Source of the DNA: an uncultured Myxococcales bacterium
GTDB lineage: Bacteria; Myxococcota_A; Polyangia; JAAYKL01
NCBI GenBank assembly: GCA_964530995.1
Contig: CAZHCG010000005.1
Location: forward strand, 3,853-67,852
DNA: 64,000 nucleotides
Direction of reading: 5' to 3'
The position numbers and the translations under genes were made by a program. This document shows positions 1 to 64,000 of this stretch, one piece after another. The notes below the pieces were generated by a model. That model made no database searches, was not told where the DNA came from, and worked only from the letters and a program-made list of their open reading frames with translations. The first letter of the stretch is position 1; every line of letters starts with the position of its first letter.

Positions 1-230
1 AGCTCGAGGGGAACGAGGATAAAAAGCCCCGGTTTGAGGCGAGTGGCCAGGCCTCGGTTCACGAGGCCTGCCACCAGGTTGCGGGCGGACTTGGCCGCCA
101 AACCGGTAATCCCCTGCACATCGGCATGCGTGAACAGGGTTCGGCCCTGCTCGTGCAGCACGGTGACCAGACGCGCGGTCTGCCGACCGAGAGTCTTCGT
201 TGTTTCATGTTCTTCGTGCACAATGCCCAT
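1..230 (-). CDS. Type IV toxin-antitoxin AbiEi-family antitoxin / winged-helix regulator, N-terminal part (runs off left edge)
   Basis: Not in the ORF track. Manual translation from ATG at 230 gives MGIVHEEHETTKTLGRQTARLVTVLHEQGRTLFTHADVQGITGLAAKSARNLVAGLVNRGLATRLKPGLFILVPLEL, which matches the KTLG...RLKPGLF.LVP pattern of AbiEi N-termini. An alternative GTG start lies at 221. Confidence 0.7.
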   Translation of the reverse strand, partial: MGIVHEEHETTKTLGRQTARLVTVLHEQGRTLFTHADVQGITGLAAKSARNLVAGLVNRGLATRLKPGLFILVPLE

Positions 231-250
231 CCGCAAGAGGCATATTGCAC
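216..250. promoter_or_regulatory. Imperfect inverted repeat over the antitoxin start (possible autoregulatory operator)
   Basis: GTGCACAATGCC (216-227) and GGCATATTGCAC (239-250) match at 10/12 as an inverted repeat. AbiE operons are known to be autorepressed through promoter inverted repeats. Confidence 0.35.
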
Positions 251-347
251 GAAAAAGGCAATCAAGGCAAGTCAAGTTTCCTGTTTTGCGTGCTATATGC
301 ACAGCGGAAAAGGGCACTTTGCACACATAACGGCAATCTCGGTCGAC

Positions 348-611
348 CTAACCAAGCGATCCCAGCAACCCCACATCGCCAATCCGCCTTCTGCCCTGAC
401 GTCCGAGAGTGTCCAGGACGGCCTTGCTCGGCGTGTTCGCGTGGGCCTCGGCCTTGGTCAGGGCCTCCTGCTCGTCCGCGGACAGCTCGTCCTTGATGCC
501 GTGGTACTCCGACACGAGGATCGTGTCGTTGGAGTCGTGGGTCTCGACCTCCCAGGGCGTGAACTCCACCTTGGAGTGCACGTGGTAGACCACGATCTCG
601 CCTTCCGCGCT
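348..611 (-). pseudogene. Probable 3' fragment of a truncated gene of unknown family
   Basis: Open frame SAEGEIVVYHVHSKVEFTPWEVETHDSNDTILVSEYHGIKDELSADEQEALTKAEAH... with GC-rich third positions. It is cut upstream by TGA at 612-614 and has no clear RBS. Confidence 0.35.
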
Positions 612-684
612 TCAGCGTGTCTGACACTTCAGTTGGTAGGCTCTACCCGATCTTGGAGGCCTGACGTGCTACTAGCGGCTCCCT

Positions 685-6342: not shown

Positions 6343-6465
6343 TGGCCGCGCGCATGCGCCTACATGCGCCAGCCCGAGGTTCGGTCATTGGCCTCGTTTT
6401 TTCAAGAAGGCGAACGGGGCCCGGCCGGGCTGGCGTCTTTTGCCAGGCGCGCTAGAATCGAGGCG

Positions 6466-7992
6466 ATGGTGCGGCTGCGTTTTTTCGAGGTGCGCCCGGT
6501 GTTCGCTATTCTCTCGGTGGTGCTCGCGCTGACCGCGGTCGCCTGCTGCGGAGATTGCGGAGGCGGAAAGCGGGATCTCGACCTGGTGGGCGCGCCGGTC
6601 GAGGCCTCCGCGCCGGACGGCGGCGAGCCGAGGCGCGTGGCCGCGGACGACGAGCGCTCCCGCGACCGCTTCGTTTTCGATCTGATTCAGGACCTGGTCT
6701 TCAGGAAGCGGCGCGACGGCTGGACGCTGACCACGCCAGAGGCGCACGTCAACGTCGAGAAGCTGAGGGCGGCGGGCGTCGACCTGCTGCTGGCGGCGAT
6801 CGCCCCGCTTCCCGGCCGCGATCCGGCCGATGCGCTGGAGGAACAGCTGTCCGCGACCGAGGAGCTGGTCGAGGCGACGGACGGTGCGATGCGGATCGTC
6901 GTCGGGCTCGGGGAGGCGGACGAGGCGCGGCGGCGGGGCGCGATTCCGGTGATGGTGCTGCTCGAGGGAGCGGACGCGCTGGTCGGGAAGGACGAGGAGC
7001 TGTACGACCTGCGACGCAGGGGCCTGGCGGCGGTCGGGCTGGTGGGATCGCATTCGAACGGCGCGGGAGACTCGGTCTCCGATCCCCGCGATCCGGGCGG
7101 CCTGACCACGGCTGGCGAGGAGCTGGTTGCGGCCCTTCGGGATAACTCGCTGGCGCTGGACCTGACTCACGCCACGCGCGAGCTGTTCTGGGACGTGATC
7201 GTCGGCCAGCACGTGCCGGCGATGGTCAGCCACGCCGGAGCGCGGGCCCTGCGCGAGCACCCGCGCAACCTGGACGACCTCCAGCTACTGGCGCTGGCCC
7301 GCAGCGGGGGCGTGATCGGCCTGGTGCTGAACCCGGACCTGCTGGTAGCGGGGCAGAGCGGCGCGGATATCGAGGACGTGGTGGCGCACGCCGAGCACGT
7401 CAAGTCGATCGGGGCGCTGAAGGCGCTGGCGCTGGGGACCGACTACGGGGGGATCAGGCCGCCGCGCGGATTGGACGACGTCTCGCGCCTGCCGAAGCTG
7501 ATCGAGGCGCTGCGCGCCGCGGGCTGGACCGGGGAGGAGATCGACGGATTGCTGGGAGGTAACGCGCGGGCCTTCTTCGAGCGGGTCGAGCGCCGGGTGG
7601 GGACGGCGGAGATCGCCGAGCGGGAGCCTGGGCGGCCGATCGCGCTGGAGTGCGAGACCCTGATCGGAGAGGTCGAAGGCGCTCCGGCGCTGGCCTGCGA
7701 CGGCTACCTGTCGCGACCGGCCGCCGAGCTGCCCCCCGAGAGCCGCCAGCGGTTCCGACTCCAGGAGATGGATCGCACTCCCTTGAGGCTGGAGCTGTTC
7801 GGCGATCCGGGCACGCCCTGGCAGGTGGAGGCTCAGAACCTGGAAGGGGACGTGATCGTGCAGCGCGTGGTGATGATCGACGAGAGCGGCAGGGGATCTC
7901 TGTCGATGCCGGCCGACCGCGGTCTGACCCGCCTGTTCCTATCGCCCACCCGTCCCTCGGCGCTCAGGGAGGCGGTCGTCTGGGGTCGTTGA
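6466..7992 (+). CDS. Exported membrane dipeptidase family (M19) protein with an extra C-terminal domain
   Basis: Signal/lipoprotein-like N-terminus, then LLEGAD, LDLTHA, VSHAG..REHPRNLDD and GTDYGG. Start trimmed from 5980 to the ATG at 6466. Confidence 0.8.
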   Translation: MVRLRFFEVRPVFAILSVVLALTAVACCGDCGGGKRDLDLVGAPVEASAPDGGEPRRVAADDERSRDRFVFDLIQDLVFRKRRDGWTLTTPEAHVNVEKLRAAGVDLLLAAIAPLPGRDPADALEEQLSATEELVEATDGAMRIVVGLGEADEARRRGAIPVMVLLEGADALVGKDEELYDLRRRGLAAVGLVGSHSNGAGDSVSDPRDPGGLTTAGEELVAALRDNSLALDLTHATRELFWDVIVGQHVPAMVSHAGARALREHPRNLDDLQLLALARSGGVIGLVLNPDLLVAGQSGADIEDVVAHAEHVKSIGALKALALGTDYGGIRPPRGLDDVSRLPKLIEALRAAGWTGEEIDGLLGGNARAFFERVERRVGTAEIAEREPGRPIALECETLIGEVEGAPALACDGYLSRPAAELPPESRQRFRLQEMDRTPLRLELFGDPGTPWQVEAQNLEGDVIVQRVVMIDESGRGSLSMPADRGLTRLFLSPTRPSALREAVVWGR

Positions 7993-10022: not shown

Positions 10023-12821
10023 ATGAAAAAGAGCGCCACAACGACGGCGATCGGGCTGTTCGTGCTGTTGCTGGCCGGCGGCTCGGCGGCATTCACCGGC
10101 GGCGAGCGCCGGGTGGAGAGCGTACCGCCCGGGACGGAGTGGCTCGCCGGGCACTCCGGAAGCTCGAAGATTGGGTTCGTCGGGGAAGGCCCCGCCGAGC
10201 TGAGCGAAAGGTACGGCGGAGAGTGGACACAGCGCCGCGGAGGGCCTACCGGGGATTTTCGGCGCATCTGGGGATCGGGTGTCCCAGTCGGAGAGGCGGC
10301 GGTCGGCGACGAGCTGGTGGCCTGGGACGCCGCCGAGGCGTTCTGGACGCGAAACGAGGATCTGCTGCCCGGCGGAGCCGGGGCGGCGAACCTGGAGCCG
10401 GCGGTCACCTCTCTGTGGCGAGGGCTGCGCACTGTCACCCATCGCCAGACGGTGAACGGCGTGCCCGTGCTCGGCTCCAGCGCCACGCTGGCGATCCGCG
10501 CCGGCAGGATCGCCTTGATCGGCGTGCACCTTTTTCCGGTAAGGCCGGTCGAGACCGAGCCCTCGCTGAACGTGGAAAAGGCGGAGCAGGCCGCCGTCGA
10601 CGCGCTTTCCGAACGCGGAATAGCGGCCGACGTCGAGCGGTCGGAGCTGGCCCTGTTCCCCGTGCTGCGCGAGGACGCGCCCTCGCTGCGGCTGGTCTGG
10701 GCGGTGGAGCTGCAAGGCACCAGCTGGGGACGCTGGACGGCCTACATCGACGCCCACCGCGGGTCGCTGCTGGCCCTGCGGGACGAGCGCCTGTTCGTGA
10801 CCGGCTCGCTCAGGGGCAGGCACCACGAGCGGCACCCGGGGGGCGACGTGGTCGAGAGCCCGCTTTCCCATCTGTACATTTCTACTGACGACGGAGACGA
10901 CACCACGGACGAGGCCGGCGCCTTCTCGGTCGTGGGCGACACAACCGCGCTGCAGGCCTGGCTGTCGGGAATGTACGCCACGATCGCAAACAAGAGCGGC
11001 GGCGACCTGTTCATCGACGAGATCGACGTGGGCGCCGACCCGCTCGTGCTCGACACGGAGGCCTCGGAGGCCGAGTTCGCCCAGGTGCACGCCTACGTCT
11101 TCACCAACGAGGTTCGCGACCACGCTCGTGCGCTGATGGACGATCTGGCCTGGCTGGACGCCCCCCTGCCGGTCAACGTCAACAACATCGATCTGGACGG
11201 CGACCAGCAGCAGGACTTCTGCAACGCCTGGTTCGACGGCCAGTCGCTGAACTTCCTGATGGCCGGCGATCCGGGCTGGGGCATGGAGTGCAACAACACC
11301 GCGATGATCGGGGACATCCTCTACCACGAGTACGGCCACGGCTTTCACCTGGAGAACGCGATGATCGGCTCGATGGTCTTCGACGAGGCGATCAGCGAGG
11401 GCTTCGCCGACACGATGGCCTCGTCGGTCACGCTCGATTCCAAGATCGCGCCCTACTTCACCACCGAGGGTCACCACATCCGCGACCTGGAGCCGGACCT
11501 GGTCTGGCCCACCGACGTCTCGGAGGATCCCCACCAGACCGGGCTGATCGTGGGGGGAGCCTACTGGGACCTGCGGACCACCTTCCGGGAAGAGTACGGA
11601 GACGATCAGGGCAACGCGATGCTGGATCTGCTGTTCGCCGGGGCCACGCGCGTCGCGACCGACATCCCGTCGGCCTACGAGTCGACGCTGGTGGTCGACG
11701 ACGACAACGGCAACATAGAGGACGGCACGCCGCACTTCTGTCAGATCTACGACGCCTTCGCCGCCCACGGGCTCGCCTCCGAGGGCACCGGGCGGATCGC
11801 GATCGAGCACGAGCAGCTCGATGATCTCTCCGACCCCTCGCAGCCGGTGGTCGTGGAGGCCGAAGTCTGGGTGGCGGAGGAGGCCTGCAACGAGATGGGC
11901 CAGGTGCGGATCGCCTACAGCCTCGACGGCGGCGAGACGTGGACCTCCGAGGAGATGGAGAACGTCGGAGCGGACAGCTTCAGCCACGAGCTGGGGACGT
12001 TCGCGGAGGGCACGGAGCTGCTCTACCGGATCGAGGCCGACGAGAACCTCAGCGGCGACGTGATCACCCGGCCCAGCAACGCGGCCGAGCCGTACTACCG
12101 CGCCTATGTCGGACCGCTCGAGGAGATCGTGTTCGACGATTTCGAAAGCGAGGACGATTCCTGGACCCACGAGCTGACCGAGGGGATCGAGCGCGAGGGC
12201 GCCGACGACTGGCAGTGGGGGGTCCCGGCGGGCAAGGGCGGAGATCCCGACGAGGCCTACAGCCCGACCCACGTCTGGGGCAACGACCTGGCGCCGGCCT
12301 CGAACTGGAACGGCGAGTACCAGCCCGGCAAGGTCAACGCGCTGATCAGCCCGGCCTACGATCTGAGCGAGCACGATCTGGTGCGCCTGCGCCTGCGCCG
12401 CTGGCTGACAGTCGAGGACGGCTACTACGATCAGGCCACGATCTACGTCGGCGGCGAGGGAGACTGGCAGCCGGTCTGGACAAATTTCGTTTCCGAGGGA
12501 GACCAGAACGCATCGCACGTCACGCACCACATCGATCGCGAGTGGGTGCTGTTCGACCTGGACATCAGCGAGTGGGCCGCCGGGCGGAGCCAGGTCCAGA
12601 TCCGGTTCGAGATCGCCTCGGACGCCGGCCTGCAGTTCGGCGGCTGGACGATCGACGACTTCGGTCTCTACACCAGGGCCCAGGCCTCCGATCCCGGCGA
12701 CGGGGCGGACGCCGGGGCCGACGCCGGAGACGGCGGCGGATCCTCGGGAGGCTGCGGCTGTCTCGCGGCCGGCGGAAGCAGCTCCGACGGCGCCCTCGAA
12801 ACCCTCTTTTCGCTGATCTGA
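10023..12821 (+). CDS. Secreted zinc metalloprotease (thermolysin M4 / fungalysin M36-like) with propeptide, C-terminal beta-sandwich domains and a GCGC sorting-type tail
   Basis: Signal peptide MKKSATTTAIGLFVLLLAGG after RBS GAGGAG. FTP/PepSY-like propeptide (HRQTVNGVPV, YIDAHRG), HEYGH, EGFAD, DPHQTG. C-terminus GGCGCLAAGG...LFSLI. Confidence 0.85.
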   Translation: MKKSATTTAIGLFVLLLAGGSAAFTGGERRVESVPPGTEWLAGHSGSSKIGFVGEGPAELSERYGGEWTQRRGGPTGDFRRIWGSGVPVGEAAVGDELVAWDAAEAFWTRNEDLLPGGAGAANLEPAVTSLWRGLRTVTHRQTVNGVPVLGSSATLAIRAGRIALIGVHLFPVRPVETEPSLNVEKAEQAAVDALSERGIAADVERSELALFPVLREDAPSLRLVWAVELQGTSWGRWTAYIDAHRGSLLALRDERLFVTGSLRGRHHERHPGGDVVESPLSHLYISTDDGDDTTDEAGAFSVVGDTTALQAWLSGMYATIANKSGGDLFIDEIDVGADPLVLDTEASEAEFAQVHAYVFTNEVRDHARALMDDLAWLDAPLPVNVNNIDLDGDQQQDFCNAWFDGQSLNFLMAGDPGWGMECNNTAMIGDILYHEYGHGFHLENAMIGSMVFDEAISEGFADTMASSVTLDSKIAPYFTTEGHHIRDLEPDLVWPTDVSEDPHQTGLIVGGAYWDLRTTFREEYGDDQGNAMLDLLFAGATRVATDIPSAYESTLVVDDDNGNIEDGTPHFCQIYDAFAAHGLASEGTGRIAIEHEQLDDLSDPSQPVVVEAEVWVAEEACNEMGQVRIAYSLDGGETWTSEEMENVGADSFSHELGTFAEGTELLYRIEADENLSGDVITRPSNAAEPYYRAYVGPLEEIVFDDFESEDDSWTHELTEGIEREGADDWQWGVPAGKGGDPDEAYSPTHVWGNDLAPASNWNGEYQPGKVNALISPAYDLSEHDLVRLRLRRWLTVEDGYYDQATIYVGGEGDWQPVWTNFVSEGDQNASHVTHHIDREWVLFDLDISEWAAGRSQVQIRFEIASDAGLQFGGWTIDDFGLYTRAQASDPGDGADAGADAGDGGGSSGGCGCLAAGGSSSDGALETLFSLI

Positions 12822-41469: not shown

Positions 41470-42918
41470 ATGCTCTTCCACCACAACGGAATTTCGATCG
41501 CCGCGCTGCCGCTGGCGTTGCTCGTCGCGGCCTGCGGCGGAGGCGGAGGCGCGGTTCTCGCTACGACGCCGACACCGGATGCGACGACCACCTCGGTGGA
41601 GATTCCTCCGCTCGAGGGCGGCTTCGAGTGCCCCGTTCCGAAAGGGGAGTGGACTCCGGTGATGATCGCGGGTGAAGGCGGCGCGCAGCTTTCGTCCGCC
41701 CTTTCCGATCGCGGCTCGGTGATGCTGCTGCTGGGCCGGGGCATGGATGCTGCGGAAGAGGACCGGGTCTTCCAGATGGTCAAGGCCGCGGCCTCCGAGA
41801 CGGCGGTCGTGGCCCGCGATCGGGGCACTCTGGACAAGCTGCTCCAGGAGCGGGGCGAGATTCCCTACCGCACGACCATGGAGCCGGCCGGAACCGACAT
41901 GTTCGGTCGTCCCTACCTGCTGCCCAAGCACCACCCTCTGCGCACCGAGTGGCTGGCAAACGAAAAGGCGCTCAAGGGAGCGGAGGGTATGCTCACCGTG
42001 CGACGCATTCGGGTCGACGACCAGAAGCTGCGCGAGCTGAGGCGACGCCGGCGCGGTGACTGCTCTCCGTTGAGCGAGGTGTTGGCCGGCGGAGTCGAGT
42101 CGGGCAGGAGCCTGCTGGCCGCCTACGAGCAGGCGGCCAACGCCTCGTTGGAGCGGGCGTTCCGCCGCCACCTGGAGGTGGCGCTGTCGTTCTGGCGCGA
42201 GGAGGTCGCGGCGGCCCGTGTCGAGGCCGATCCCTCCGGCGAGGCGATCCGCTGCCTGGACGCCTACCAGCAGATGCTGGAGAGCTACGCGCCATGCCTG
42301 GAGAGGGACTGCGGACTGCAGCCGGCGATGCTGCTTTGCGCCGGCGGAGCGATCGGGATCGACCGCGGTCCGTTCAACGCGTTGCCCGATCGCTGTCCGG
42401 CGGCCGGCGTGCGGGACTACTCCGCCGAGATCCGCGAGCTGGCCGCTCGCGCCGCGGACGAGGTGCTGCCCTCGCTCAACGGACCCTGGACCGGAGAAGT
42501 GCTGCGCCTGGCCGCGCTGCAGCGCCTGCAAAACGGAATCGAGGATTTCTGCGCCCCGCGGCACCGTCGTTTCTCCGCGCGGGATCTCGAATCGGCGAGG
42601 GAAGAGCTGCGCGATCTGATCGCGCGGCTAGGCCGGAAGGATCTCGACGGGGAGTGGTATCCTTCGAGCGGCATGGAGCGGGCGCCCGGAACCGGACCGG
42701 TGGAGGTGGTCGCCAGGTTGCGCGCGTTGGGCTCGGATCCCGATCGCGACGTCGAGGAGATGCTGGACCGGCTGCGCGGCATCGAGCGCTGCCACCGGGG
42801 CGGAGAGCGCACCGTGCAGGCGGCGCTGGTGGATGTGGGCAGTTCCGAGGTGGTGTTCATGGGCATCTTTTTCGAGGAGCAGCTCCTTTGCGAGGATCTT
42901 CCGCCGGGCAGCCCCTGA
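41470..42918 (+). CDS. Hypothetical Cys-containing lipoprotein
   Basis: RBS AGGAGG, lipobox LLVAAC, host-like codon usage. Confidence 0.7.
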   Translation: MLFHHNGISIAALPLALLVAACGGGGGAVLATTPTPDATTTSVEIPPLEGGFECPVPKGEWTPVMIAGEGGAQLSSALSDRGSVMLLLGRGMDAAEEDRVFQMVKAAASETAVVARDRGTLDKLLQERGEIPYRTTMEPAGTDMFGRPYLLPKHHPLRTEWLANEKALKGAEGMLTVRRIRVDDQKLRELRRRRRGDCSPLSEVLAGGVESGRSLLAAYEQAANASLERAFRRHLEVALSFWREEVAAARVEADPSGEAIRCLDAYQQMLESYAPCLERDCGLQPAMLLCAGGAIGIDRGPFNALPDRCPAAGVRDYSAEIRELAARAADEVLPSLNGPWTGEVLRLAALQRLQNGIEDFCAPRHRRFSARDLESAREELRDLIARLGRKDLDGEWYPSSGMERAPGTGPVEVVARLRALGSDPDRDVEEMLDRLRGIERCHRGGERTVQAALVDVGSSEVVFMGIFFEEQLLCEDLPPGSP

Positions 42919-43048
42919 GTCACTTCTTCGAGCGGCTGGGTCTTGTGCTTGGTTTTGTCTCGAGATTGTCGTATTTTCGAAATCGAGCTTCTTGTTCAGA
43001 AGGGACGTCGGTCCAATCCGGATATCGAATCCGGAAGGAGGTTTGGCG

Positions 43049-44470
43049 ATGAGAGATCCATGGAGCTGGATTGTCGTTGCTCTGTCGGCCGTCGGGCTCG
43101 CGATCCTGGCGCCTCGGCTCGCCGCGGCGCAGGATGACTCCGAGGAGGACGAGGAGGCCGCCGCGGAGGAGGACGCGGACGAGGAGACCTCCGAAGAGGA
43201 CGATGTCGACACCGAGGATCTGTTCGGCGCGGACGACGAGCTTCCGCCCGAAGCCGGCGCGGGCGACGAGGAGGAGGAAGAGAGCTCGGCGCCGCCCGAA
43301 AAGGTCGAGCCCAAGCTGCTGCGCGGCACCTGGACCAGGTCGATCGTGTTCGCCACCGACGACGGGCAGTTCGAGTTCCAGCCGCGGGGCTGGGTCCAGC
43401 CGCGTTTCGGGATGAGCATCGTTCCGGACAACGACGACACGCTGGCGGGAACCGGCTTCACGCTCAAGCGCGCCAGGTTCGGTTTCCAGGCCAAGCTGTT
43501 CGACTGGGCGCGCATCTACCTGGACAGTGGTTTCGCCTCGGGCCAGGGGCGCCTGGTGGACTACTTCGTGGACATCGATCCCTTCGACGGGATCGCGGCG
43601 CTGCGCGTCGGTCACTTCCGGCCGTGGTTCTCGCGGCAGTTCCTGATGTCGACCACCAGGCTGCAGATGGTCGAGTACGCCCAGGCCTGGCAGGATCCCG
43701 TTTTGGGTCTCGGGGTCGGCCGCGATCTGGGCGCCTCGATCTTCGGAATGATCGCCGACACGGTCGAGTACGGAGTGGGCGCCTGGAACGGCGAGGAGGA
43801 CAAGTACGGTCTCGGCCCGATAGGCACTGAAAACGATCTCGTTTCGCCGGGCAACATCGACTTCGAGGTGGGCGGCCGGATCGCGGTGCACCCCCTGGGT
43901 CCGATGGATGCGGGCGAGCCTTTGCCCCTGGGCGACGAGTCGGACAGCGCGATCTCCGACAAGCCCAGGCTCGTGGTCGGAGGCGCGGTGCTGTACAACA
44001 AGCGGCACAACAACGAGGTGGAAATCGCTCCCGACGTCTGGAATCTGTACTACGACCACCAGCTCAAGATCGGAGCCGAGCTCGCCTTCCAGTGGATGGG
44101 TTTCTCGTTCATGGGCGAGCTGTTCTGGATGCAGACCAAGGTCCAGGACGATGCCGACCCGGCGATCAAGGCAGCGGTGCGCAACCTGGACGGCGAGCCG
44201 ACCGGTCTCGGCACCTACGCTCAGCTGGGCTACTTCGTGATGCCGCGGCAGCTCGAGATCGCCGCGCGCTTCGACATGGTCGACGAGGACACCGCAGTGC
44301 GCGGCACGCGGCTCTACCCCGGAGTCGGGACCACCTACTACCTGCACGGCAACAACCTCAAGGCGCAGCTGATGTACCGCCTTTCCGTGGGGCCGGGATA
44401 CGAGAAGCCCGATCCCAACTACATTCCGATGGGCCACGAGATCTTCCTGATGCTGCAAGCGTCGATCTAG
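43049..44470 (+). CDS. Outer-membrane porin, OprO/OprP-like
   Basis: Signal peptide and acidic linker, then F.LKRARFG, DYFVD, RVGHFRPWFSR, GRDLG, alternating beta-strands and a C-terminal hydrophobic strand. Confidence 0.82.
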   Translation: MRDPWSWIVVALSAVGLAILAPRLAAAQDDSEEDEEAAAEEDADEETSEEDDVDTEDLFGADDELPPEAGAGDEEEEESSAPPEKVEPKLLRGTWTRSIVFATDDGQFEFQPRGWVQPRFGMSIVPDNDDTLAGTGFTLKRARFGFQAKLFDWARIYLDSGFASGQGRLVDYFVDIDPFDGIAALRVGHFRPWFSRQFLMSTTRLQMVEYAQAWQDPVLGLGVGRDLGASIFGMIADTVEYGVGAWNGEEDKYGLGPIGTENDLVSPGNIDFEVGGRIAVHPLGPMDAGEPLPLGDESDSAISDKPRLVVGGAVLYNKRHNNEVEIAPDVWNLYYDHQLKIGAELAFQWMGFSFMGELFWMQTKVQDDADPAIKAAVRNLDGEPTGLGTYAQLGYFVMPRQLEIAARFDMVDEDTAVRGTRLYPGVGTTYYLHGNNLKAQLMYRLSVGPGYEKPDPNYIPMGHEIFLMLQASI

Positions 44471-45052
44471 TCTGAAGCTCCCTTGCCGAAAAGGCGAAAA
44501 GCGGCGTTGATTCAGGGGTTGTGCTGCAAGGCCGGTGCACGCGACTGTCTACAGAGTGATCTCCTTGATCAGGTCGAGGGCTTTTTGTTGGTAGGGGGTC
44601 GGGGTCGAGTCGATGACGAGCGGCGGCAGGTCGAGCTTGCTGTCGCGGGTGCAGTGGTTTCGCACGATCGAGCCGAGGTGCTCGAGGAGCGAGCGGAAGC
44701 TGTGGACGGGCTCGTCGTCTTTGGTGGTCTTGAGCGCGGCCTTGGCGAGGGCGTCGTCGGAGCGCTTCGCCGGCGCGACCGGGTCGCGGGTTGTCTTTGC
44801 GTCCTGGTCTTCATCGGCGAAAGTGATCGGGCGCCAGGCCTGCGTCATGTGCCACTGCACGTAGTACGAGAGCATACACAGGAAGATGTGCGCGCGGACG
44901 CGGTCTTCGGTGCAGTGGTGGATCGGCCGCACGAGCAGGTCGACGGTCTTCAGGGAGCGGAAGGCGCGCTCGACGTTGGCCAGCGACTTGTAGTTACGCA
45001 CCGCGTCCTCGGGACTCATGCGCTCTTCGGGCAGGCTGGTGCGCACGATGTA
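44467..45052 (-). mobile_element. IS1634-family remnant: 3' part of the transposase (44549-45052) plus the right end at CTAG
   Basis: YIVRTSL...VRNYKSLANVERAFRSLKTVDL.VRPIHH..EDRVRAHIFLCMLSYY. The element ends in ...GGGAGCTTCAGACTAG, and the CTAG (44467-44470) overlaps the porin stop codon. Confidence 0.85.
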
Positions 45053-57071: not shown

Positions 57072-58142
57072 TCAGCCCTGGATTTCGAGGTTGGTAAGAC
57101 CGGCGCGACGCGCTGCGTTGATCACTTCCTCGTATTCTTCGTCGGTGATGGGGCGCGAGATGCGTTCGAACTCGTGGGCTTTGTACATCGGACGGTACTG
57201 GGACATGATGTTGACATAGGTATCTGCGGGCAGGTTGGCTGCTATCCATTTCATCACGTCGACGCTGCCGCCGACGTCGTTCGGCATCACCAGGTGACGG
57301 ATCATCAGCCCGCGGTAGATCCTTCCGTCCTCGGCCGGACGGGCCACGCCGACCTGGCGGTGCATCTCGAGCAACGCCCGTTCGGTGAGCTCGGGGTATC
57401 TCTCCGCTCCGGAAGAGTAGACAGCGGCCATCTCGGGATCGGAGTACTTGAAATCCGGCAAGTAGATATCGACAACGCCGTCGAGCAGCTTCAGCACCTC
57501 CACCCGTTCCCAGCCGCACGTGTTGTATACCAGCGGCAGACGGAGCCCGCGCCCGGCCGCCAGATCCAACGCCTTGACGATGTGAGGCGAGTAGTGGGTC
57601 GGGGTGACGGCGTTGATGTTGAGGGCGCCCTTCTCCTGGAGCTCGAGCATCATCTCGGCCAGATCTTCCGGGCTGCGTTCCGTGCCCCGTCCACCCTGGC
57701 TGATCCGCCAGTTGATGCAGAACACGCAGCGCAGGCCGCAGTTGGACAGGAAGATCGTCCCCGACCCGCCGCCGCCCACCAGCGGCTCCTCCTCGCCCCA
57801 GTGCAGCTGATGCGAGGCGACCTCCAGGACGGACGAGGCCCCGCAGAACCCCTCCTCTCCGGAGAGGCGATCGACACCGCAGCGCCGGGGACAGAGCCTG
57901 CAGTTGCTCATCGTCTCCCACAACGCGTCCCCCCGGCGGGCGAGCTCCCCGCTGCGATGGAGCTCGAGGTATCCCGGCCGCCCCTTTCTCCCTCCTCCCG
58001 CAGCGGTCCGCTGCTTCCCTCCGGACGCAGGACCGCCGGCGCACCCGCACCCATCGCAAGCCAGCCTGAGGCCGCCCGTCATCCCGGCGGCGAAAACGCC
58101 GCCCGCTCGCTTGAGAAAATCTCTTCTCGACCGTGATTGCAT
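57072..58142 (-). CDS. PflX-like radical SAM protein with twin-arginine N-terminal extension
   Basis: CRLCPRRC, GSGTIFLSNCGLRCVFCIN (CxxxCxxC), NINAVTPTH, YNTCGWE, DIYLPDFKY, IRHLVMP, NIMSQYRP. N-terminus MQSRSRRDFLK. Confidence 0.88.
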   Translation of the reverse strand: MQSRSRRDFLKRAGGVFAAGMTGGLRLACDGCGCAGGPASGGKQRTAAGGGRKGRPGYLELHRSGELARRGDALWETMSNCRLCPRRCGVDRLSGEEGFCGASSVLEVASHQLHWGEEEPLVGGGGSGTIFLSNCGLRCVFCINWRISQGGRGTERSPEDLAEMMLELQEKGALNINAVTPTHYSPHIVKALDLAAGRGLRLPLVYNTCGWERVEVLKLLDGVVDIYLPDFKYSDPEMAAVYSSGAERYPELTERALLEMHRQVGVARPAEDGRIYRGLMIRHLVMPNDVGGSVDVMKWIAANLPADTYVNIMSQYRPMYKAHEFERISRPITDEEYEEVINAARRAGLTNLEIQG

Positions 58143-58336
58143 CCCGCCTCCCGGATCATTGTGCCACATTTTGCCGGCGGGATCTTCGGCCCGCTTCGAG
58201 CGACAGGGCCAGAACGCGGTCTTCTCGTTTCGGAAGCGCTCATCAGCTCGTCACACTGCGGTGAGAAGAAAAAAGGTAGGCTGCCTTCGAGGGAAGAGGC
58301 ATTGATTGCACGCCATTCGGCTTTTGGTAAGGTGTT

Positions 58337-60181
58337 TTGATAGAAGTGGAAGAGCACATCGAGATGAGATCAGAGCCTGCTATTGAGAAGATCGTCCGTG
58401 TTCTGCGCCGGTCGCTGCTCCTTCCGATGGCGGCCGCCTGCGGTCTGTGCGCGATCACCTGCCTGTACAGCGGTGACAATCCGGATCTGGCGGGGCGCGA
58501 CGTGCGTCTCACGATCCTGCACACCTCGGACATCCACTCCCGCATTCTGCCCTACGATCACACGCCGATGTACACCGAGGAGAAGCTGGGGCTGGTCGGC
58601 GGGCGCGGGCCCTACGGCGGGATCGCCCGCGTCGCTCACATCATCGAACGCGAGCGGAAGGAGGCCGGCAGGTCGCTGTACGTCGATTCGGGGGATCTCT
58701 TCCAGGGCGCGCCGATCTTCAACCTGTTCCACGGCGAGCCGGAGATCCGCGCCTTGAGCCTGACCGGGGTGGACGTCTTCGCGATGGGCAACCACGAGTT
58801 CGATTTCGGCCCGACCAACATCGTCGACCAGTTTCAGCAGTGGGCCGGCTTCCCCGTCCTGGCGGCCAACTACGAGTTCGATCAGGCCGCCAAGCGTTTC
58901 GCCGGTCGCTTCGACGAGCTGGTGCGGCCCTGGGTGGTGTTCAATCTCCACGGGCTCGAGGTGGGCGTGATCGGGATGGGCAACACCAGCTCGATGACGA
59001 GCCTGGAGGAGGGCGGCAACTCGATGGGGATCATCCCGTTCGACGCCGTGCAGACCGTCCAGGCGCACGTAAACGTGCTGCGTCCGGAGGTGGACGTGCT
59101 GATCCTGCTCAGCCACCTGGGGCTGGGCACCGACGAGCTGGTGGGCCGCAACGTGTGCGGTCTCGACCTGATCCTGGGCGGCCACCACCACGTGGCGCTC
59201 GATCCACCCAAGGTGATTCCCTACGACCCGGAGCCGGAGTACGTCGCCGGGATGGTCGAGGACGGCTACTACGACATCGACGAGGAAGGCGGGGGGCAGG
59301 CTCTGGATGCGGCGCAGGTCTGCCCCGACGAGTGGCGGCGCGACGTGATCATGGCCCACCCGCAGGCGTTCTCCAAGTTCGTCGCGCGCCTCGACCTGGT
59401 GGTGCGCGACGGCCGGATCCGGTCGCATCGCTTGGAGCTGTTCCCGGTGGACAACACGGTGCCGCAGGACCCCGACGTGCTCTACCTGCTGGAGGACTAC
59501 GTGCGCCGGCTCTACCAGGAGTACGACCTGGGCCGCGTGGTGACTCGCGCCAGCCGGGACGTGAACCGCTTCGGGACCACGGGCGGCGACAGCATGCTGG
59601 GCAACCTGGTGGCCGAGGCGATGCAGTACCGCAAGTACGTCGAGACGGACTTCGCGATGACCAACTCGCTGGGCATGCGGACCAACATCCTCGGTCCGGA
59701 CGGGGACGACGACGAGCCGCGTCCGGTGACGATTGAGACGATGTTCAACGTGCTCCCGTTCGAGAACACGATCACGACGATGTACCTCAGCGGCGCCGAG
59801 GTGCAGGAGATGCTCGACTACGCCACGCGGCGCAGCGCGGGGCGCGGCTGCTCGAGCCAGATCCAGGTCTCGAACCTCGGCTTCACCATGAACTGCCGCA
59901 CCGGAGTCGCCGAGGACGTGGTCATCGCCGGAGAGCCGATGCGCTCGGACAAGGTCTACGAGATGGCGACCAACAACTACATCGCCTGGGGCGGGAGCGG
60001 GTTCGAGATGCTCAAGCGCAACACGACCAAGATCGACACCGGGATCTCGATGCGGGACGCGGTGATCGACTACATCCGCGACTACGAGAGCATCCCGGTC
60101 TGTTTCGAGGTGGAGCAGGGTACGGGGCAGTGCGTGCGCGGCATAGGTTTCGAGGACGGTCGGATCGCGCCGACCTATTGA
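58337..60181 (+). CDS. Exported bifunctional metallophosphoesterase / 5'-nucleotidase (UshA/CpdB-like)
   Basis: LHTSDIHS, DSGDLFQG, GNHEFD, LSHLG, GGHHH and C-terminal domain TNSLGMR, VLPFEN, ATNNYIA.GGSGF. The start may be ATG 58364. Confidence 0.92.
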   Translation: MIEVEEHIEMRSEPAIEKIVRVLRRSLLLPMAAACGLCAITCLYSGDNPDLAGRDVRLTILHTSDIHSRILPYDHTPMYTEEKLGLVGGRGPYGGIARVAHIIERERKEAGRSLYVDSGDLFQGAPIFNLFHGEPEIRALSLTGVDVFAMGNHEFDFGPTNIVDQFQQWAGFPVLAANYEFDQAAKRFAGRFDELVRPWVVFNLHGLEVGVIGMGNTSSMTSLEEGGNSMGIIPFDAVQTVQAHVNVLRPEVDVLILLSHLGLGTDELVGRNVCGLDLILGGHHHVALDPPKVIPYDPEPEYVAGMVEDGYYDIDEEGGGQALDAAQVCPDEWRRDVIMAHPQAFSKFVARLDLVVRDGRIRSHRLELFPVDNTVPQDPDVLYLLEDYVRRLYQEYDLGRVVTRASRDVNRFGTTGGDSMLGNLVAEAMQYRKYVETDFAMTNSLGMRTNILGPDGDDDEPRPVTIETMFNVLPFENTITTMYLSGAEVQEMLDYATRRSAGRGCSSQIQVSNLGFTMNCRTGVAEDVVIAGEPMRSDKVYEMATNNYIAWGGSGFEMLKRNTTKIDTGISMRDAVIDYIRDYESIPVCFEVEQGTGQCVRGIGFEDGRIAPTY

Positions 60182-60194
60182 GAGGACGAAGAGC

Positions 60195-61316
60195 ATGCGG
60201 ATGCTCGGAGCGAAACGAATGATCGCCGCGATCGGGGTCGCGCTGGTCGGGGCGGCGGTCGCTGCGGCGGTTTCGTGCGAGGTGCGGCTCGACAGCGAGC
60301 TGAAGGGCCCGGCCACGTTCGAGGTGACGCTGCGCGAGGGGGAGACCGGCTCGGCCGATCAGCCGCTGGCGTTCAGCTCGCAACCGCTGACCTACCTGCT
60401 CGACGTCCGCGCGGTGGACGGCGACGGCTCCACGGCGGATTGGTTCTCCGGAGAGGTGCACCTCGACCTGCAGCCGCGGGGCAAGCTCAGCTCCGGTCAG
60501 ACGCGCTGGCTCGAGGTCAGCGAAGGAATCGCCGAGGGAGTCGAGGTCTCGGTGGAGAAGATCCATTCCACGGCCAGCATCTGGGTCGAGGACACGGGCA
60601 GCGAGGAACGGCCCGGCGGCTACGCCACCGGCCTTTCGCCCACGCTCCACTTCAGGCACCCCACGATCCGCAACGCGCAGGAGAGCGGGATGCACCTCGG
60701 CTCCGGGTTGCGCGGGGAGTTCGCCGAGATCGATCTCGAAGGACGGACAGCGGTGGTGACCGGGGTCTCGCGGGACGGGTTCTACGTGACGGACACCAGC
60801 GAGCCGGACCTGTTCTATAGCTCGGTCTATGTCTACAGCTTCTCTCGTCCCGACGTGGAGATCGGCGATCGGATCGCGGAGCTGCGCGGCACGGTGGACG
60901 AGTTCTTCGGCTTCACCGAGCTGGGCTTTCCGTCGTGGAAGGCCCAGGGAACGGCCGACTTGCCGGACGCAGTGCGGATCGACGCTCAGCTGCTCGCCGA
61001 CGACGACTCGATGGAGCCCTACGAGAGCGCGCTGGTCGAGGTGACGAACGTCGAGGTCTGCCCGGTGGCGGAGGGATACCACACCTACGGGCAATGGAAG
61101 GTGCTCGTCGATCCGGCGGGAGACTGCTCCAGCGGCGAGGGCGCGATCAACGTGGTCAGCGCCTACACGGCTCCGGAGATCGATCCGGCCGAGCTGAGCG
61201 GAGAGACGATCGAGCGCATCGCAGGCAACCTGCGCTACCACATGGCGGCCAGCCCGAGCTGGATTGTCTACGTGCGGGGCTCGCAAGATATCGATATCGG
61301 CGGAGAGGGCCGCTGA
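60195..61316 (+). CDS. Exported protein with YhcR/ExeM-type OB-fold modules and no catalytic nuclease domain
   Basis: Lipobox-like AAVSC, VVTGV..DGFYVTD, VYVY, VEIGD.I....GTV.EFFGFTEL, EPYESALVEV. Confidence 0.65.
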   Translation: MRMLGAKRMIAAIGVALVGAAVAAAVSCEVRLDSELKGPATFEVTLREGETGSADQPLAFSSQPLTYLLDVRAVDGDGSTADWFSGEVHLDLQPRGKLSSGQTRWLEVSEGIAEGVEVSVEKIHSTASIWVEDTGSEERPGGYATGLSPTLHFRHPTIRNAQESGMHLGSGLRGEFAEIDLEGRTAVVTGVSRDGFYVTDTSEPDLFYSSVYVYSFSRPDVEIGDRIAELRGTVDEFFGFTELGFPSWKAQGTADLPDAVRIDAQLLADDDSMEPYESALVEVTNVEVCPVAEGYHTYGQWKVLVDPAGDCSSGEGAINVVSAYTAPEIDPAELSGETIERIAGNLRYHMAASPSWIVYVRGSQDIDIGGEGR

Positions 61317-61371
61317 CGGCCAGGAAAACCAGCGGAGGCCGGGCCTCCGCCCGTGTAATGGAGGAGCTACG

Positions 61372-62781
61372 ATGTCACTTTTCTTTCGCACATTGATCGC
61401 CGCGATGGCCGCCTCCCTGTCGGTGGCTCTCTTGATCGGGGCATGCGGCGCCACGGACAACGGAGACGGAGGCGGAGATTCGGATTCCGACGGCGACGGC
61501 GACACCGATTCGGATTCCGACGGCGACGCCGACACAACGATCTACGACATCCGCCAGGGCAACGTCGCCGAGGGGAGCCAGGTCGCGCTGAGCGGAGTGG
61601 TGGTCACCTCTCCGGCGCATATCGAGGGCTCGGTGGTCTTCGTCGAGGAGCCCGAGGCGGGACAGTACTCGGGAATCTACCTCTACATGTACAGCGAGGT
61701 GCTGGCCGAGCACGGCGAGGATCTGACTCCCGGCGCGGTGATCGACGTCTCCGGCGAGTACACCGAGTTCTACGGAGTGTCCGAGCTGACGGTCGAGGCG
61801 CCCGGTGACCTGACGATCAACGATTACGGCGACGTGCCCGGACCCGACGTGGTCGATCCGGCCGACATCAAGACCGGCGGCTCGCTGGCCGAGGCCTACG
61901 AGAGCGTGCTGGTGCGGGTCGAGGACGTGGAGGTGACCCAGGCCGATCTGGGCTACGGCAATTTCGAGGTTACCGGCGGGCTGGTCGTCGACGATTTCTT
62001 CTTCGAGGAGGGCGGCGGGCCCTCGGGTCCTCACCTCGAGCCCGGCCAGGGGGACACCTTCGAGGCCGTGGTCGGACCGCTGCGCTACTCCTACGAGGAG
62101 TTCCAGATCTCGCCGCGGGAGATGGAGGATTTCGTGGGGTACAGCGGCGAGGTCGACACGGACACGGATACTGAAGCGGATACGATCTACGACGTGCAAC
62201 AGGGAGAGGTTTCCGAAAACGAGGTCGTGACCATCGAGGGAGCGGTCGTCACCTCGCCGGTGCACGAGGAAGAGCAGTACGCCTTCGTCGAGGATCCGCA
62301 GGCGGGAGCGTTCTCCGGGATCCTGCTCTATCTCTACAACGAGCCGTTCGCGGAAGCCGATCTGCAGCGCGGGGACGTCGTGGACGTCACCGGCGTGTAC
62401 CAGGAGTACTACGACATGTCGCAGATCGTGGTGCAGAGCACCGGCGATCTGGTGGAGACCGGAACCGAGAGCCTGCCCGCGCCCGAGGTCGTGTCGTCCG
62501 CGGACGTCGCGACGGGCGGCTCGCAGGCCGAGGACTACGAGGGCGTGCTGGTCGAGATCGAATCCCCGACGGTGACCAACGCGGACGCCGGCTACGGCCA
62601 GTTCGTGGTGGACGGTACATTGCTGGTCGACGATTTCTTCTTCAGCGGAGGACAGGGGCCTTCCGGCGAGATGCCCGCGGTCGCGATCGACGACGGCTTC
62701 ACCGCGCTGCGTGGCGTCCTGATTTACCACTTCGACGACTTCAAGCTGGCACCCCGCGACTCCGACGATTTCGTGAACTGA
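61372..62781 (+). CDS. Lipoprotein with two tandem ~215-aa OB-fold-type repeats
   Basis: LIGAC lipobox and DSDSDGDGDT linker. Repeats start at 61537 (TIYDIRQG) and 62182 (TIYDVQQG) and share G.VVTSP, AG..SGI.LY.Y.E, AE.YE.VLV, VDDFFF, PR. Confidence 0.78.
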   Translation: MSLFFRTLIAAMAASLSVALLIGACGATDNGDGGGDSDSDGDGDTDSDSDGDADTTIYDIRQGNVAEGSQVALSGVVVTSPAHIEGSVVFVEEPEAGQYSGIYLYMYSEVLAEHGEDLTPGAVIDVSGEYTEFYGVSELTVEAPGDLTINDYGDVPGPDVVDPADIKTGGSLAEAYESVLVRVEDVEVTQADLGYGNFEVTGGLVVDDFFFEEGGGPSGPHLEPGQGDTFEAVVGPLRYSYEEFQISPREMEDFVGYSGEVDTDTDTEADTIYDVQQGEVSENEVVTIEGAVVTSPVHEEEQYAFVEDPQAGAFSGILLYLYNEPFAEADLQRGDVVDVTGVYQEYYDMSQIVVQSTGDLVETGTESLPAPEVVSSADVATGGSQAEDYEGVLVEIESPTVTNADAGYGQFVVDGTLLVDDFFFSGGQGPSGEMPAVAIDDGFTALRGVLIYHFDDFKLAPRDSDDFVN

Positions 62782-62866
62782 CGGCGGCGGGACGCACGGG
62801 CGATTCGCCGCGTGAGCGCCCGGATGGATCAACGGCGAGAAGCAACTTCCAAGGAGCCGATCACAG

Positions 62867-64000
62867 ATGAAGAGCACACCGAGATCAGCGGCGGCCTGGG
62901 TAGCGGCGATTCTGGCTCTGAGCGCACCCGCGCTGGTCGCACAGGAGCAGGGCGAGACGGAGGCAGAGGAGGCCGGGGCCGAACAGGAGGACGAGGTCGA
63001 ACGGGAGGCCGCGAGCGAGCGGGACGAGTCTCTCGCTGCGGAGGAAGAGCCGGGTGAAGGCGCGAGCGAGCCTGCCGCCGGGACGACTCCGGCCGGATGC
63101 GTCAAGGACACCGACTGCAAGGGGGAGCGCGTCTGCGAGCAGGGAAGCTGCGTCTCGCCGCCGCGGGAGCTCGGTTGCGTCAAGGACGTGGACTGCAAGG
63201 GCGAGCGGATCTGCGAGGGCGGGCGCTGCGTACGGCCCGTCGAGACCGAGGAAGAGCAACAGCCGACCGAAGACGAAACCGGGGAGGACGGAGTCGATGG
63301 ACAGAGGTTCATGGACACTCGCATCACGTTCGTCTTCAGCGACGACAACCTGTTGGCCGGAACCAAGGAACGATCGCCCAGCATCGGGATCGGACCCGCG
63401 GACGACGAGCTGTTCTTCGAGGGGCTGCAGCAGGAGAAGCGCGGCTGGGAGACCGAGACGCAACTGGTTCTGTACAAGAAGATGCCTTCCTACTTCCCGA
63501 GGCTCGACGCGGAGGCCGCCCTGGTCCTCGAGATGCAGAACTTCGTCGACAAGGACACGTGGGAGAACGAGACGGTGATCGGCGACGACGGCTCCTATCT
63601 CAAGCTCAACCTGTACACCGAGCGCGATGACTACACGGGAGACAACGTCAACCTGACGCTGTTTCCGATGGACTCGCAACGCTTCCTTCTGGGCTACACC
63701 TACGATATCACCTGGGGTGGGGAGAGGATCTTTCCCAACAAGAAGGGGCAGGTTCCCGGCGCGCGGTTGAAGTGGGATTTCAACGTGGGCGAGGCACATT
63801 CGGGATACGTCTTTGCCGGAGCCAAGACCGCGCGGCTGCTCAACAACGAGCTCAACGAGCAGCAGACGTATTACGGGGCCCTGGGCGGTTTCGGGATCGA
63901 GATCATCGATTGGCTCTTCTGGGAGGCGAACGGCGGATACTTCCAGCGCGGTCCGTTTCTCACCGCGGCAGGGACCTCGTTGGGCGGCGAGACGATGGAG
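62867..64000 (+). CDS. Exported protein, probably an outer-membrane beta-barrel, with acidic linker and two Cys-rich repeats (partial, runs off right edge)
   Basis: Not in the track because there is no stop inside the window. Open from ATG 62867 (RBS AAGGAG) to 64000: MKSTPRSAAAWVAAILALSAPALVAQ..., then FMDTRITFVFSDDNLLAG, ETQLVLYKK, RFLLGYTYDITWGG and aromatic alternating strands. Confidence 0.75.
   Translation, partial: MKSTPRSAAAWVAAILALSAPALVAQEQGETEAEEAGAEQEDEVEREAASERDESLAAEEEPGEGASEPAAGTTPAGCVKDTDCKGERVCEQGSCVSPPRELGCVKDVDCKGERICEGGRCVRPVETEEEQQPTEDETGEDGVDGQRFMDTRITFVFSDDNLLAGTKERSPSIGIGPADDELFFEGLQQEKRGWETETQLVLYKKMPSYFPRLDAEAALVLEMQNFVDKDTWENETVIGDDGSYLKLNLYTERDDYTGDNVNLTLFPMDSQRFLLGYTYDITWGGERIFPNKKGQVPGARLKWDFNVGEAHSGYVFAGAKTARLLNNELNEQQTYYGALGGFGIEIIDWLFWEANGGYFQRGPFLTAAGTSLGGETME
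63095..63232 (+). repeat. Two 78-bp tandem coding repeats (four-Cys module)
   Basis: GCVKDTDCKGERVCEQGSCV and GCVKDVDCKGERICEGGRCV, with high nucleotide identity. Confidence 0.8.

Follow-up and report, generated by a model that had tools for sequence, protein, structure and literature searches.

A conserved cluster of a 5'-nucleotidase-family lipoprotein, tandem-OB lipoproteins and a predicted outer-membrane barrel in Myxococcota, with a possible role in the salvage of extracellular nucleotides

What would a bacterium do with a 5'-nucleotidase, two proteins built from the binding modules of nucleases that cells secrete, and a barrel of the outer membrane, all of them encoded one after the other? 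The question is raised by the end of a 64,000-nucleotide stretch of DNA from an uncultured Myxococcales bacterium (GenBank assembly GCA_964530995.1, contig CAZHCG010000005.1, positions 3,853 to 67,852 of the forward strand), the whole of which is called here the window. Four tightly packed genes, g1 to g4, occupy positions 58364-64000 of its plus strand. A first, sequence-only reading had proposed that lipoproteins with oligonucleotide/oligosaccharide-binding (OB) folds capture oligonucleotides, that a barrel imports them and that the nucleotidase finishes their degradation, in a Sus-like but apparently TonB-independent arrangement. Taken as a whole, this interpretation is partly supported by our analysis. 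We are confident that g1 to g4 belong together as a conserved functional unit made up of three lipoproteins and an outer-membrane barrel, while a function of this unit in handling (salvaging) extracellular nucleotides or nucleic-acid fragments is possible, if somewhat short of probable. No description of this gene set was found in the searchable literature.

The genes follow each other with spacers of 13, 55 and 85 nt, and a Shine-Dalgarno-like purine run precedes each of them. They code for a lipoprotein of the 5'-nucleotidase/CD73/UshA family (g1, 58364-60181, 605 aa), a lipoprotein with an Ig-like sandwich and one tandem-OB module (g2, 60195-61316, 373 aa), a lipoprotein with two tandem-OB modules (g3, 61372-62781, 469 aa) and a predicted outer-membrane beta-barrel protein with a signal peptide, cut by the end of the window (g4, 62867-64000). 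That all four are exported had been recognised from the beginning; the refinement is that g1 is a lipoprotein as well, so that the set comprises three lipoproteins and one signal-peptide barrel. The open reading frame of g1 opens with a TTG at 58337, the ATG at 58364 being the likelier start, and g3 starts at the ATG at 61372 and not at the TTG at 61264. Only 377 complete codons of g4 lie inside the window, and the downstream sequence could be retrieved from a metagenome contig (L001, 5182-7107) that supplies the full protein of 641 aa. This contig and two others (L002, L003) have 100% amino-acid identity over the shared genes and extend ca. 400 nt past g4. The GC content at third codon positions (GC3) of the module genes is 0.84-0.92, against a GC content of 0.67 for the window, and together with the hundreds of homologues this indicates that g1 to g4 are real genes. 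The DNA of the window was recovered in microbial-mat metagenomes, and the nearest genome is a Polyangia metagenome-assembled genome (MAG; JAWOBP010000036.1) with 86-95% amino-acid identity and the same flanking genes. A promoter and terminator scan of the whole module found no sigma-70-like site and no plus-strand terminator between the genes, which are probably co-transcribed; the upstream regions of the loci had diverged too far for footprinting.

A barrel-based scan of species-representative genomes, for which 12 of the closer g4 sequences were used, gave 22 loci, and look-ups of distant homologues added more; the neighbouring genes were classified by tblastn and by hidden Markov models of the families. 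The order g1-g2-g3-g4 was found in every Polyangia/Nannocystis locus that reached far enough (L004-L008, L010-L012, L015, L017 and L018), and again in L030, where the identity of the barrel is ca. 35%. A nucleotidase, a g2-like gene and the barrel go together, at ca. 35% identity, in Archangium (L019), in a Bradymonadales MAG (L026) and in L029, L032 and L033, with L029 adding a 933-aa g3-like protein that the g3 profile matches three times. In a Myxococcaceae locus (L024) the nucleotidase lies ca. 2.2 kb upstream of the barrel. Two loci (L020, L021) have a g3-like gene, a g2-like gene and the barrel without the nucleotidase, and in L027, a contig that begins within the g2-like gene, three g3-like genes stand between this gene and the barrel. 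The g3-type genes number from none to three in a locus, and at least three modules can be present in one protein. Along similar lines, the consecutive NCBI locus tags M0R80_12135, M0R80_12140 and M0R80_12145 are homologues of g2, g3 and g4. The unit is then composed of a nucleotidase, a lipoprotein of g2 type, proteins of g3 type in varying number and the barrel. What is most constant in it is the core formed by g2 and the barrel, and the set is kept together across Myxococcota and Bradymonadales, in agreement with the synteny expected of a module. Genes downstream of g4 are not conserved across the loci compared, and in Nannocystis the coding strand switches directly after g4. In one Nannocystis locus (L018, N. 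pusilla Na p29) g1 is spread across three reading frames (4999-6792) and g4 across two (10103-11529), either as pseudogenes or through frameshift errors of long-read sequencing; a 396-aa "hypothetical protein" of N. pusilla (P0072) matches the g4 fragment of this locus.

By its sequence g1 is certainly an ordinary member of the 5'-nucleotidase superfamily. It matches Metallophos with 51.6 bits (Pfam cut-off 21.5; E 2e-13) and 5_nucleotid_C with 90 bits (cut-off 23.6; E 2e-25), and it aligns end to end with solved enzymes from Thermus (2z1a, E 7e-43), human (CD73, E 3e-39) and E. coli (UshA, E 4e-29). The set of two-metal and catalytic motifs (DxH, GD, GNH[ED]xD, H, GGHxH) is complete, in the form of DIH (58529-58537), GDLFQG (58691-58708), GNHEFD (58787-58804), SHLG (59111-59122) and GGHHH (59177-59191). 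Further on, LPFEN (59753-59767) and GGSGF (59990-60004) align to VLPFGN and GGDGF of 2z1a, and we take these positions to be the site of the base-stacking Phe pair of 5'-nucleotidases. Among the NCBIfam models, UshA, NadN, CpdB and SoxB gave partial matches. The putative lipidated residue is Cys33 (58460-58462), at the end of AITC and followed by LYSGDN. As orthologues retain a Cys ahead of the conserved LY(S/D) segment, in contexts that resemble a lipobox (LGSC, VSC, ITC), g1 is very probably a lipoprotein.

The two middle genes had been described as carrying three related OB-type modules, and this stands: the C-terminal half of g2 aligns with a g3 module at an hhalign probability of 99.5% (E 4.5e-22; pairwise identity 26%), and the two modules of g3, of ca. 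200 aa each (residues 56-256 at 61537-62139 and residues 270-469 at 62179-62778), are 49% identical to each other (E 4e-62). The fold is of OB type, as had been claimed, but the module is more than a single OB fold. In the AlphaFold2 model of g2 (mean pLDDT 93, pTM 0.85) it is a tandem of two five-strand barrels, an OB-like one (residues 176-253, 60720-60953) and a second, small one (residues 264-360, 60984-61274), preceded by an N-terminal Ig/FN3-like beta-sandwich (residues 40-153, 60312-60653) that had been missed. A narrower delimitation of the two barrels gives residues 186-253 and 280-359. AlphaFold2 models were made for g2 and g4, and the fold of g3 was assigned by homology. A Foldseek search with the whole g2 model returned mostly Ig/FN3 matches and one OB match, the OB region of BRCA2 (probability 0.91). 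Pfam gives no match to g2, and an identification of its Ig-like domain as LTD (PF00932) was dropped, since no LTD match is among the results.

These modules lead to the DNA-handling proteins of other bacteria. A profile of the g3 family matches the cryo-electron microscopy structure of SpnA from Streptococcus pyogenes (9sf8/9sf9) with an E of 2e-11, the match to 9sf8 covering residues 4-169 plus a weaker stretch at ca. 203-233. By the depositors' account, this entry consists of the nuclease domain of SpnA together with OB3 and OB4, and SpnA needs OB2-4 to bind DNA (PMC13601614). The NCBIfam model for ExeM/NucH (NF033681) matches g3 at positions 32-116 (E 5.6e-13; whole-protein score 48.6 bits) and residues 186-296 of g2 at model positions 3-119 (E 4.7e-6; 25.8 bits). 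Both proteins stay below the cut-off of 300, and the matches end at position 119 of the 546 in the model. The statement that g2 and g3 lack a nuclease domain was confirmed in that their matches are confined to this N-terminal part, and no EEP match was found by Pfam in the proteins of the window, nor among the families matched by 43 g2 and 41 g3 members. Within the g3 family the Pfam matches are to OB-type or DNA-uptake-linked families, i.e., DUF4131, which is the N-terminal domain of ComEC (10 of 41 members), tRNA_anti-codon (5 of 41) and BOF (4 of 41); besides, seven of the 41 match DUF5689 (PF18942) at E <= 0.01 (best 4.5e-6), and several g3 homologues carry a precomputed PF18942 match. From these profile comparisons, the OB modules of g2 and g3 are homologous to the OB3-OB4 pair ahead of the nuclease domain of SpnA, ExeM and NucH and are related, more weakly, to DUF5689 (DdbD). 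An Ig-like domain and then OB give g2 the appearance of a nuclease of the Xds/ExeM type of which only the front half, without the catalytic part, is present.

The lipobox Cys28 of g2 (60276-60278) is invariant in 43 homologues, and g3 has the lipobox LIGAC with Cys25 (61444-61446), after which comes a linker rich in Asp, Ser and Gly (residues 26-55). The position next to the lipidated Cys (+2) is L in g1, E in g2 and G in g3. In Myxococcus a Lys at this position marks the lipoproteins that are retained in the inner membrane (PMC3222651) and, as none of the three has it, g1, g2 and g3 probably go to the outer membrane. The outer-membrane fraction of M. xanthus does contain two lipoproteins of the 5'-nucleotidase family (MXAN2470 and MXAN5361), the family to which g1 also belongs (PMC3222651). 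Asp-rich linkers also open several other lipoproteins of the window, for example at 49958, 56300 and 31177.

The last gene had been read as a probable barrel with a signal peptide and two four-Cys repeats, all of which could be located. The type-I signal peptide (62867-62941) would be cleaved between ALVA and QEQ, and the two repeats (C-x5-C-x5-C-x4-C) are at residues 78-95 (63098-63151) and 104-121 (63176-63229). They match DUF7107 (27.8 bits, cut-off 24.6) and are lineage-specific, being found in two of 41 family members; the other members have differing N-terminal extensions, some of them with weak Pfam matches of coiled-coil type. In the AlphaFold2 model the residues up to 146 are acidic and disordered save for two Cys hairpins, and from ca. 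residue 148 (63308) to residue 641 there is a barrel of ca. 495 residues and ca. 18-20 DSSP strands, modelled with a pLDDT of ca. 90. The C-terminus in L001 (...GFALLAQAKW) has the aromatic Trp as its last residue, and the family consensus is ...LLxQARF/W. Among the 50 matches listed by Foldseek against the PDB there are essentially only outer-membrane barrels (E 4.5e-8 to ca. 4e-5), the best of them being 16-18-strand barrels (MOMP, LamB, OprO/OprP, OprD/Occ and AlgE) with target-normalised TM-scores of ca. 0.4-0.55. TonB-dependent receptors are few among these matches and have TM-scores of 0.21-0.28. No Plug or TonB_dep_Rec match was found in 41 members of the family at E <= 1 (a TonB box was not formally searched), and an identity of g4 as a SusCD-like or TonB-dependent transporter was rejected on account of the missing plug signal, of ca. 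18-20 strands instead of 22 and of porins heading the Foldseek matches. None of the named porin families (Porin_O_P, LamB, OprD, Alginate_exp, MOMP) was matched in the same 41 members beyond scattered sub-threshold matches, and a PDB profile search with the g4 family gave nothing below an E of 0.8. At the 50% clustering level the family numbers 553 representatives for E <= 1e-3 and 240 for 1e-30; its sources, where named, are Nannocystis, Myxococcales, Polyangia, Bradymonadales and "Deltaproteobacteria", and it has neither a Pfam nor an NCBIfam model. According to these models g4 is a plug-less, porin-like outer-membrane beta-barrel of an unnamed family, and for the picture of a Sus-like arrangement independent of TonB there is now an analogue studied by experiment, the ddb locus of Bacteroides, whose DNA transporter is TonB-dependent. 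In L029, genes for ExbB and ExbD (1-1219, minus strand) diverge just upstream of the g3-like, nucleotidase, g2-like and barrel genes. This neighbourhood, which bears on the independence from TonB, was seen once and is probably coincidental.

As to its kind, the module is best classed among the outer-membrane nutrient-acquisition loci, in which binding lipoproteins, a barrel and a hydrolase are encoded together; what is new here is the unnamed barrel family and an unusual form, non-catalytic and hyper-acidic, of the nuclease OB module. In the salvage that we favour, g2, the invariant neighbour, would dock on the g4 barrel as a receptor or lid, like DdbD on DdbC or SusD on SusC, and the g3-type proteins would be accessory binders, like SusE/F. 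These proteins would keep fragments of nucleic acid or nucleotides close to the pore, perhaps via Ca2+ or Mg2+ bridges, and g4 would let nucleotides, short oligonucleotides, or nucleosides and phosphate pass by diffusion, without energy from TonB. The 5'-phosphate would be stripped by g1, after which nucleoside and phosphate could cross the inner membrane, while the nucleases that make the fragments would be encoded elsewhere. The order of capture, import and dephosphorylation is one of several possible ones, as it hinges on which face of the outer membrane the lipoproteins occupy; dephosphorylation outside the cell followed by import of nucleoside and phosphate is equally open. That g2 and g3 bind nucleic acid at all is something we only infer from their homologies. 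A bolder version, in which Myxococcota and Bradymonadales would have evolved their own TonB-independent uptake of nucleic-acid fragments across the outer membrane, with a plug-less barrel gated or fed by g2, g3 as poly-OB binders, a 5'-nucleotidase and OB modules that bind by cation bridges or base recognition, seems to us unlikely.

A number of observations weigh against salvage of nucleic acid. The most striking is the acidity of the proteins that should bind it. The g3 family is acidic in all of its 41 members (median net charge -61, with 3.2% of Lys plus Arg), and g3 of the window has a net charge of -87, with 10 Lys and Arg residues in 469 aa and about -35 in each module; the only near-invariant basic residue in this family is the Arg that closes each module. 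The g2 family is extremely acidic in every member as well (median net charge -31). The homologous segment of SpnA is likewise acidic (net charge -12), yet has ca. 10% of Lys plus Arg. The acidity is not just an adaptation to salt or a halophilic life, since the homologues of cultured Nannocystis isolates are acidic too, and it makes a plain electrostatic binding of a polyanion by g2 and g3 unlikely as judged from their composition. Cation-bridged binding, base-directed binding or a ligand other than nucleic acid must be considered instead, and OB modules that are nearly devoid of basic residues, though homologous to DNA-binding OB folds, are a puzzle of protein chemistry in their own right. 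Then there is no nuclease domain in the cluster, in any locus examined or in the 64-kb window, which leaves the supply of oligonucleotides unexplained by the module. For g1, every NCBIfam equivalog cut-off is out of reach (the top model, UshA, scores 169 against 600 bits), so that its exact substrate is not assignable by homology, and the Arg run that precedes SNLGNL in 2z1a is Gly-Gly in g1. The DUF5689 score of the window g3 (23.8 bits) is below the gathering score of 28.6. In the two most divergent loci, both of low GC (L022, L025), the barrel is alone, beside riboflavin and PNPase genes. No phosphate-regulon gene adjoins the module, and the scan gave no regulatory motif, a Pho-box search not having been made. 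Finally, the sole evidence of expression comes from metatranscriptome Logan contigs of soil and wetland that cover 1425 nt of a g1 and 1662 nt of a g4 of Nannocystis type with ca. 96% identity; as some of the libraries may contain DNA, the most that follows is an expression of relatives in nature.

There are other possible explanations for such a conserved set. One would be that g4 imports nothing and is an anchor or translocon that displays g2, and with it g1 and g3, at the cell surface, in the manner of the LptD-LptE plug or of Slam-type export. Once exposed, the OB proteins and with them the nucleotidase would act outside the cell, for example by tethering the extracellular DNA (eDNA) of a matrix or by converting extracellular nucleotides. 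The invariant position of g2 as immediate partner of the barrel across lineages would suit this, as would the fact that all three soluble components are lipoproteins and the long acidic linkers after the Cys that lipoproteins of this organism have, which are fit for reaching off the membrane. The matrix of M. xanthus contains eDNA bound to exopolysaccharide (PMC9073016), and a fold search cannot separate an open pore from an occupied one. However, g4 has no sequence similarity to any named family, Slam (DUF560), LptD and BamA included, by its fold it comes closest to diffusion porins and to the exporter AlgE and not to translocons, and the steady presence of a catabolic 5'-nucleotidase fits nutrient salvage more easily. 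We consider display at the surface unlikely. Transformation is a related case, in which g2 and g3 would capture DNA, g4 would pass it to the periplasm for import by ComEC and the nucleotidase would recycle the degraded strand. In Riemerella a DUF5689 lipoprotein and the adjoining barrel, for which such an uptake has been proposed, are essential for transformation (PMC8459023), and the g3 family has weak matches to DUF5689 and to the ComEC N-terminal domain. Even so, long DNA is unlikely to pass through a plug-less barrel of ca. 18-20 strands that has neither a motor nor a pilus gene in its vicinity, no comEA, comEC, dprA or pilQ adjoins the module in any locus examined, and the tight linkage to a phosphatase speaks for catabolism, all of which makes a role in transformation highly improbable.

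A different alternative changes the ligand. The OB modules could bind a cationic or neutral one, for instance nucleosides or bases, divalent metals, amino-sugar polymers or basic peptides, and g1 could act on other phosphoesters or pyrophosphates such as UDP-sugars, NAD, 2',3'-cyclic nucleotides or cyclic-di-nucleotides; a class of small molecules, and neither DNA nor RNA, would then be scavenged or degraded. In favour of this are the extreme acidity of g2 and g3, with hardly any conserved basic residue, the absence of a nuclease from the module and the fact that g1 is the equivalog of no characterised enzyme while matching UshA, NadN, CpdB and SoxB in part. OB folds bind sugars and proteins too (PMC11286949). 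On the other side, wherever the tandem-OB module has been characterised (in SpnA, ExeM, NucH, Xds and DdbD and at the N-terminus of ComEC), its context is the processing or the uptake of DNA, and the LPFEN and GGSGF motifs of g1 do align with their counterparts in the Thermus enzyme. We consider a ligand other than nucleic acid improbable too, and we keep to the salvage of nucleotides or nucleic-acid fragments as the tentative function.

The closest analogue of this proposed salvage module is found in Bacteroidota. The ddbABCDEF locus of Bacteroides thetaiotaomicron is required for the use of DNA, and DdbD, a DUF5689 lipoprotein, is the proposed substrate-binding partner of the TonB-dependent DNA transporter DdbC (10.1101/2025.03.18.642099). 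The pair essential for natural transformation in Riemerella anatipestifer (RA0C_RS04915/04920) is homologous to it (PMC8459023). In all of them an outer-membrane barrel is adjoined by a DUF5689 or OB-type lipoprotein, by more lipoproteins of the signal peptidase II type and by enzymes of nucleic-acid catabolism, and the ddb locus and the module share a logic similar to that of polysaccharide utilization loci. Unlike the TonB-dependent transporter of ddb, the barrel of the module is plug-less and of an unnamed family; the enzyme is a 5'-nucleotidase with no nucleases in the locus, the OB proteins are nearer to the ExeM/SpnA module than to DUF5689, and the phylum is Myxococcota instead of Bacteroidota. 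With the nucleases ExeM, NucH, Xds and SpnA, g2 and g3 have the tandem-OB module itself in common, and the order of an Ig-like domain and OB in g2 echoes that of LTD and OB in Xds (PMC6746945). In contrast to these enzymes, g2 and g3 lack the EEP domain and are non-catalytic, stand-alone, lipid-anchored and far more acidic.

Two further systems combine similar parts in other ways. In Vibrio cholerae, growth on the phosphate of eDNA proceeds by secreted nucleases (Xds, Dns) and periplasmic phosphatases, reportedly with UshA among them (PMC4714964). The sequence of events, nucleic acid to nucleotides outside the cell and then dephosphorylation by an envelope phosphatase before uptake, resembles what we propose for the module, whereas the Vibrio genes are scattered and are not known to include dedicated binding lipoproteins or a barrel. 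In JGI pipelines the homologues of g3 are annotated as "DNA/RNA endonuclease YhcR with UshA esterase domain". In YhcR of Bacillus subtilis, which is anchored to the wall, OB folds, nuclease and 5'-nucleotidase are domains of a single protein. The pairing of OB folds of YhcR type with a domain of the 5'-nucleotidase family is the same in the module, but here the parts are separate genes, the nuclease domain is missing and a dedicated outer-membrane barrel has been added. As for g4, its model is placed among the 16-18-strand barrels of OprP/OprO, LamB, OprD/Occ and AlgE, and it shares with them a signal peptide and an aromatic residue at the C-terminus, but it falls outside their sequence families, its barrel is larger (ca. 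495 residues), its family has a variable N-terminal extension, and its gene is linked to lipoprotein genes.

Soils, sediments and microbial mats contain much phosphorus, nitrogen and carbon in the form of extracellular DNA and RNA, and predatory myxobacteria release the nucleic acids of their prey in bulk. In very few Gram-negative lineages is it known how the breakdown products get through the outer membrane, and the ddb locus was described only in 2025. As a candidate route for the salvage of nucleotides in Myxococcota, the module joins a 5'-nucleotidase and a barrel of its own to that half of secreted nucleases which binds DNA. If these bacteria did have an uptake system of their own, it would be a second way, by a different mechanism, to do what Bacteroidota do with DdbCD. 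The module is open to study in cultured Nannocystis and probably also via the versions of Myxococcus and Archangium.

Some smaller features of the locus deserve mention. The spacer between g2 and g3 contains a GC-rich perfect hairpin of 9-10 bp (AGCGGAGGCC-G-GGCCTCCGC, 61331-61351, plus strand; L001 3646-3666, minus strand), which has no T-run 3' of it on the plus strand and which, from its sequence, could be an intercistronic RNA structure. The independent assemblies all stop ca. 400-480 nt past g4 (L001 7108-7519, L004 11750-12229), and the end of L001 is rich in AT, in contrast to the remainder of the genome, and suggests that the assembly breaks at a repeat or a mobile element. On the other side, the module is bordered by a radical-SAM gene (57072-58169, minus strand) that diverges from g1, the module lying between this gene and the end of the window. 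Its protein opens with a twin-arginine-like motif (SRRDFLKRAGG), uncommon for a radical-SAM enzyme, and the gene adjoins the module only in the closest relative (L004) and not in Nannocystis.

Farther from the module, ca. 14 kb upstream, there is a second pair of lipoprotein and barrel on the plus strand, i.e., a 482-aa lipoprotein with no family match (41470-42918) and a protein of the Porin_O_P (phosphate-selective porin) family (42833-44470, E 3.8e-9). Directly after the latter comes a short DDE transposase fragment (44549-45046, minus strand, E 8e-5), which suggests a remnant insertion sequence. Near the other end of the window, a minus-strand gene (685-4482) codes for a 1265-aa fusion of a Ser/Thr kinase, an nSTAND1 NTPase and an FGE-sulfatase-like domain, and it is adjoined by a gene for a sigma-54 activator (4483-6342).

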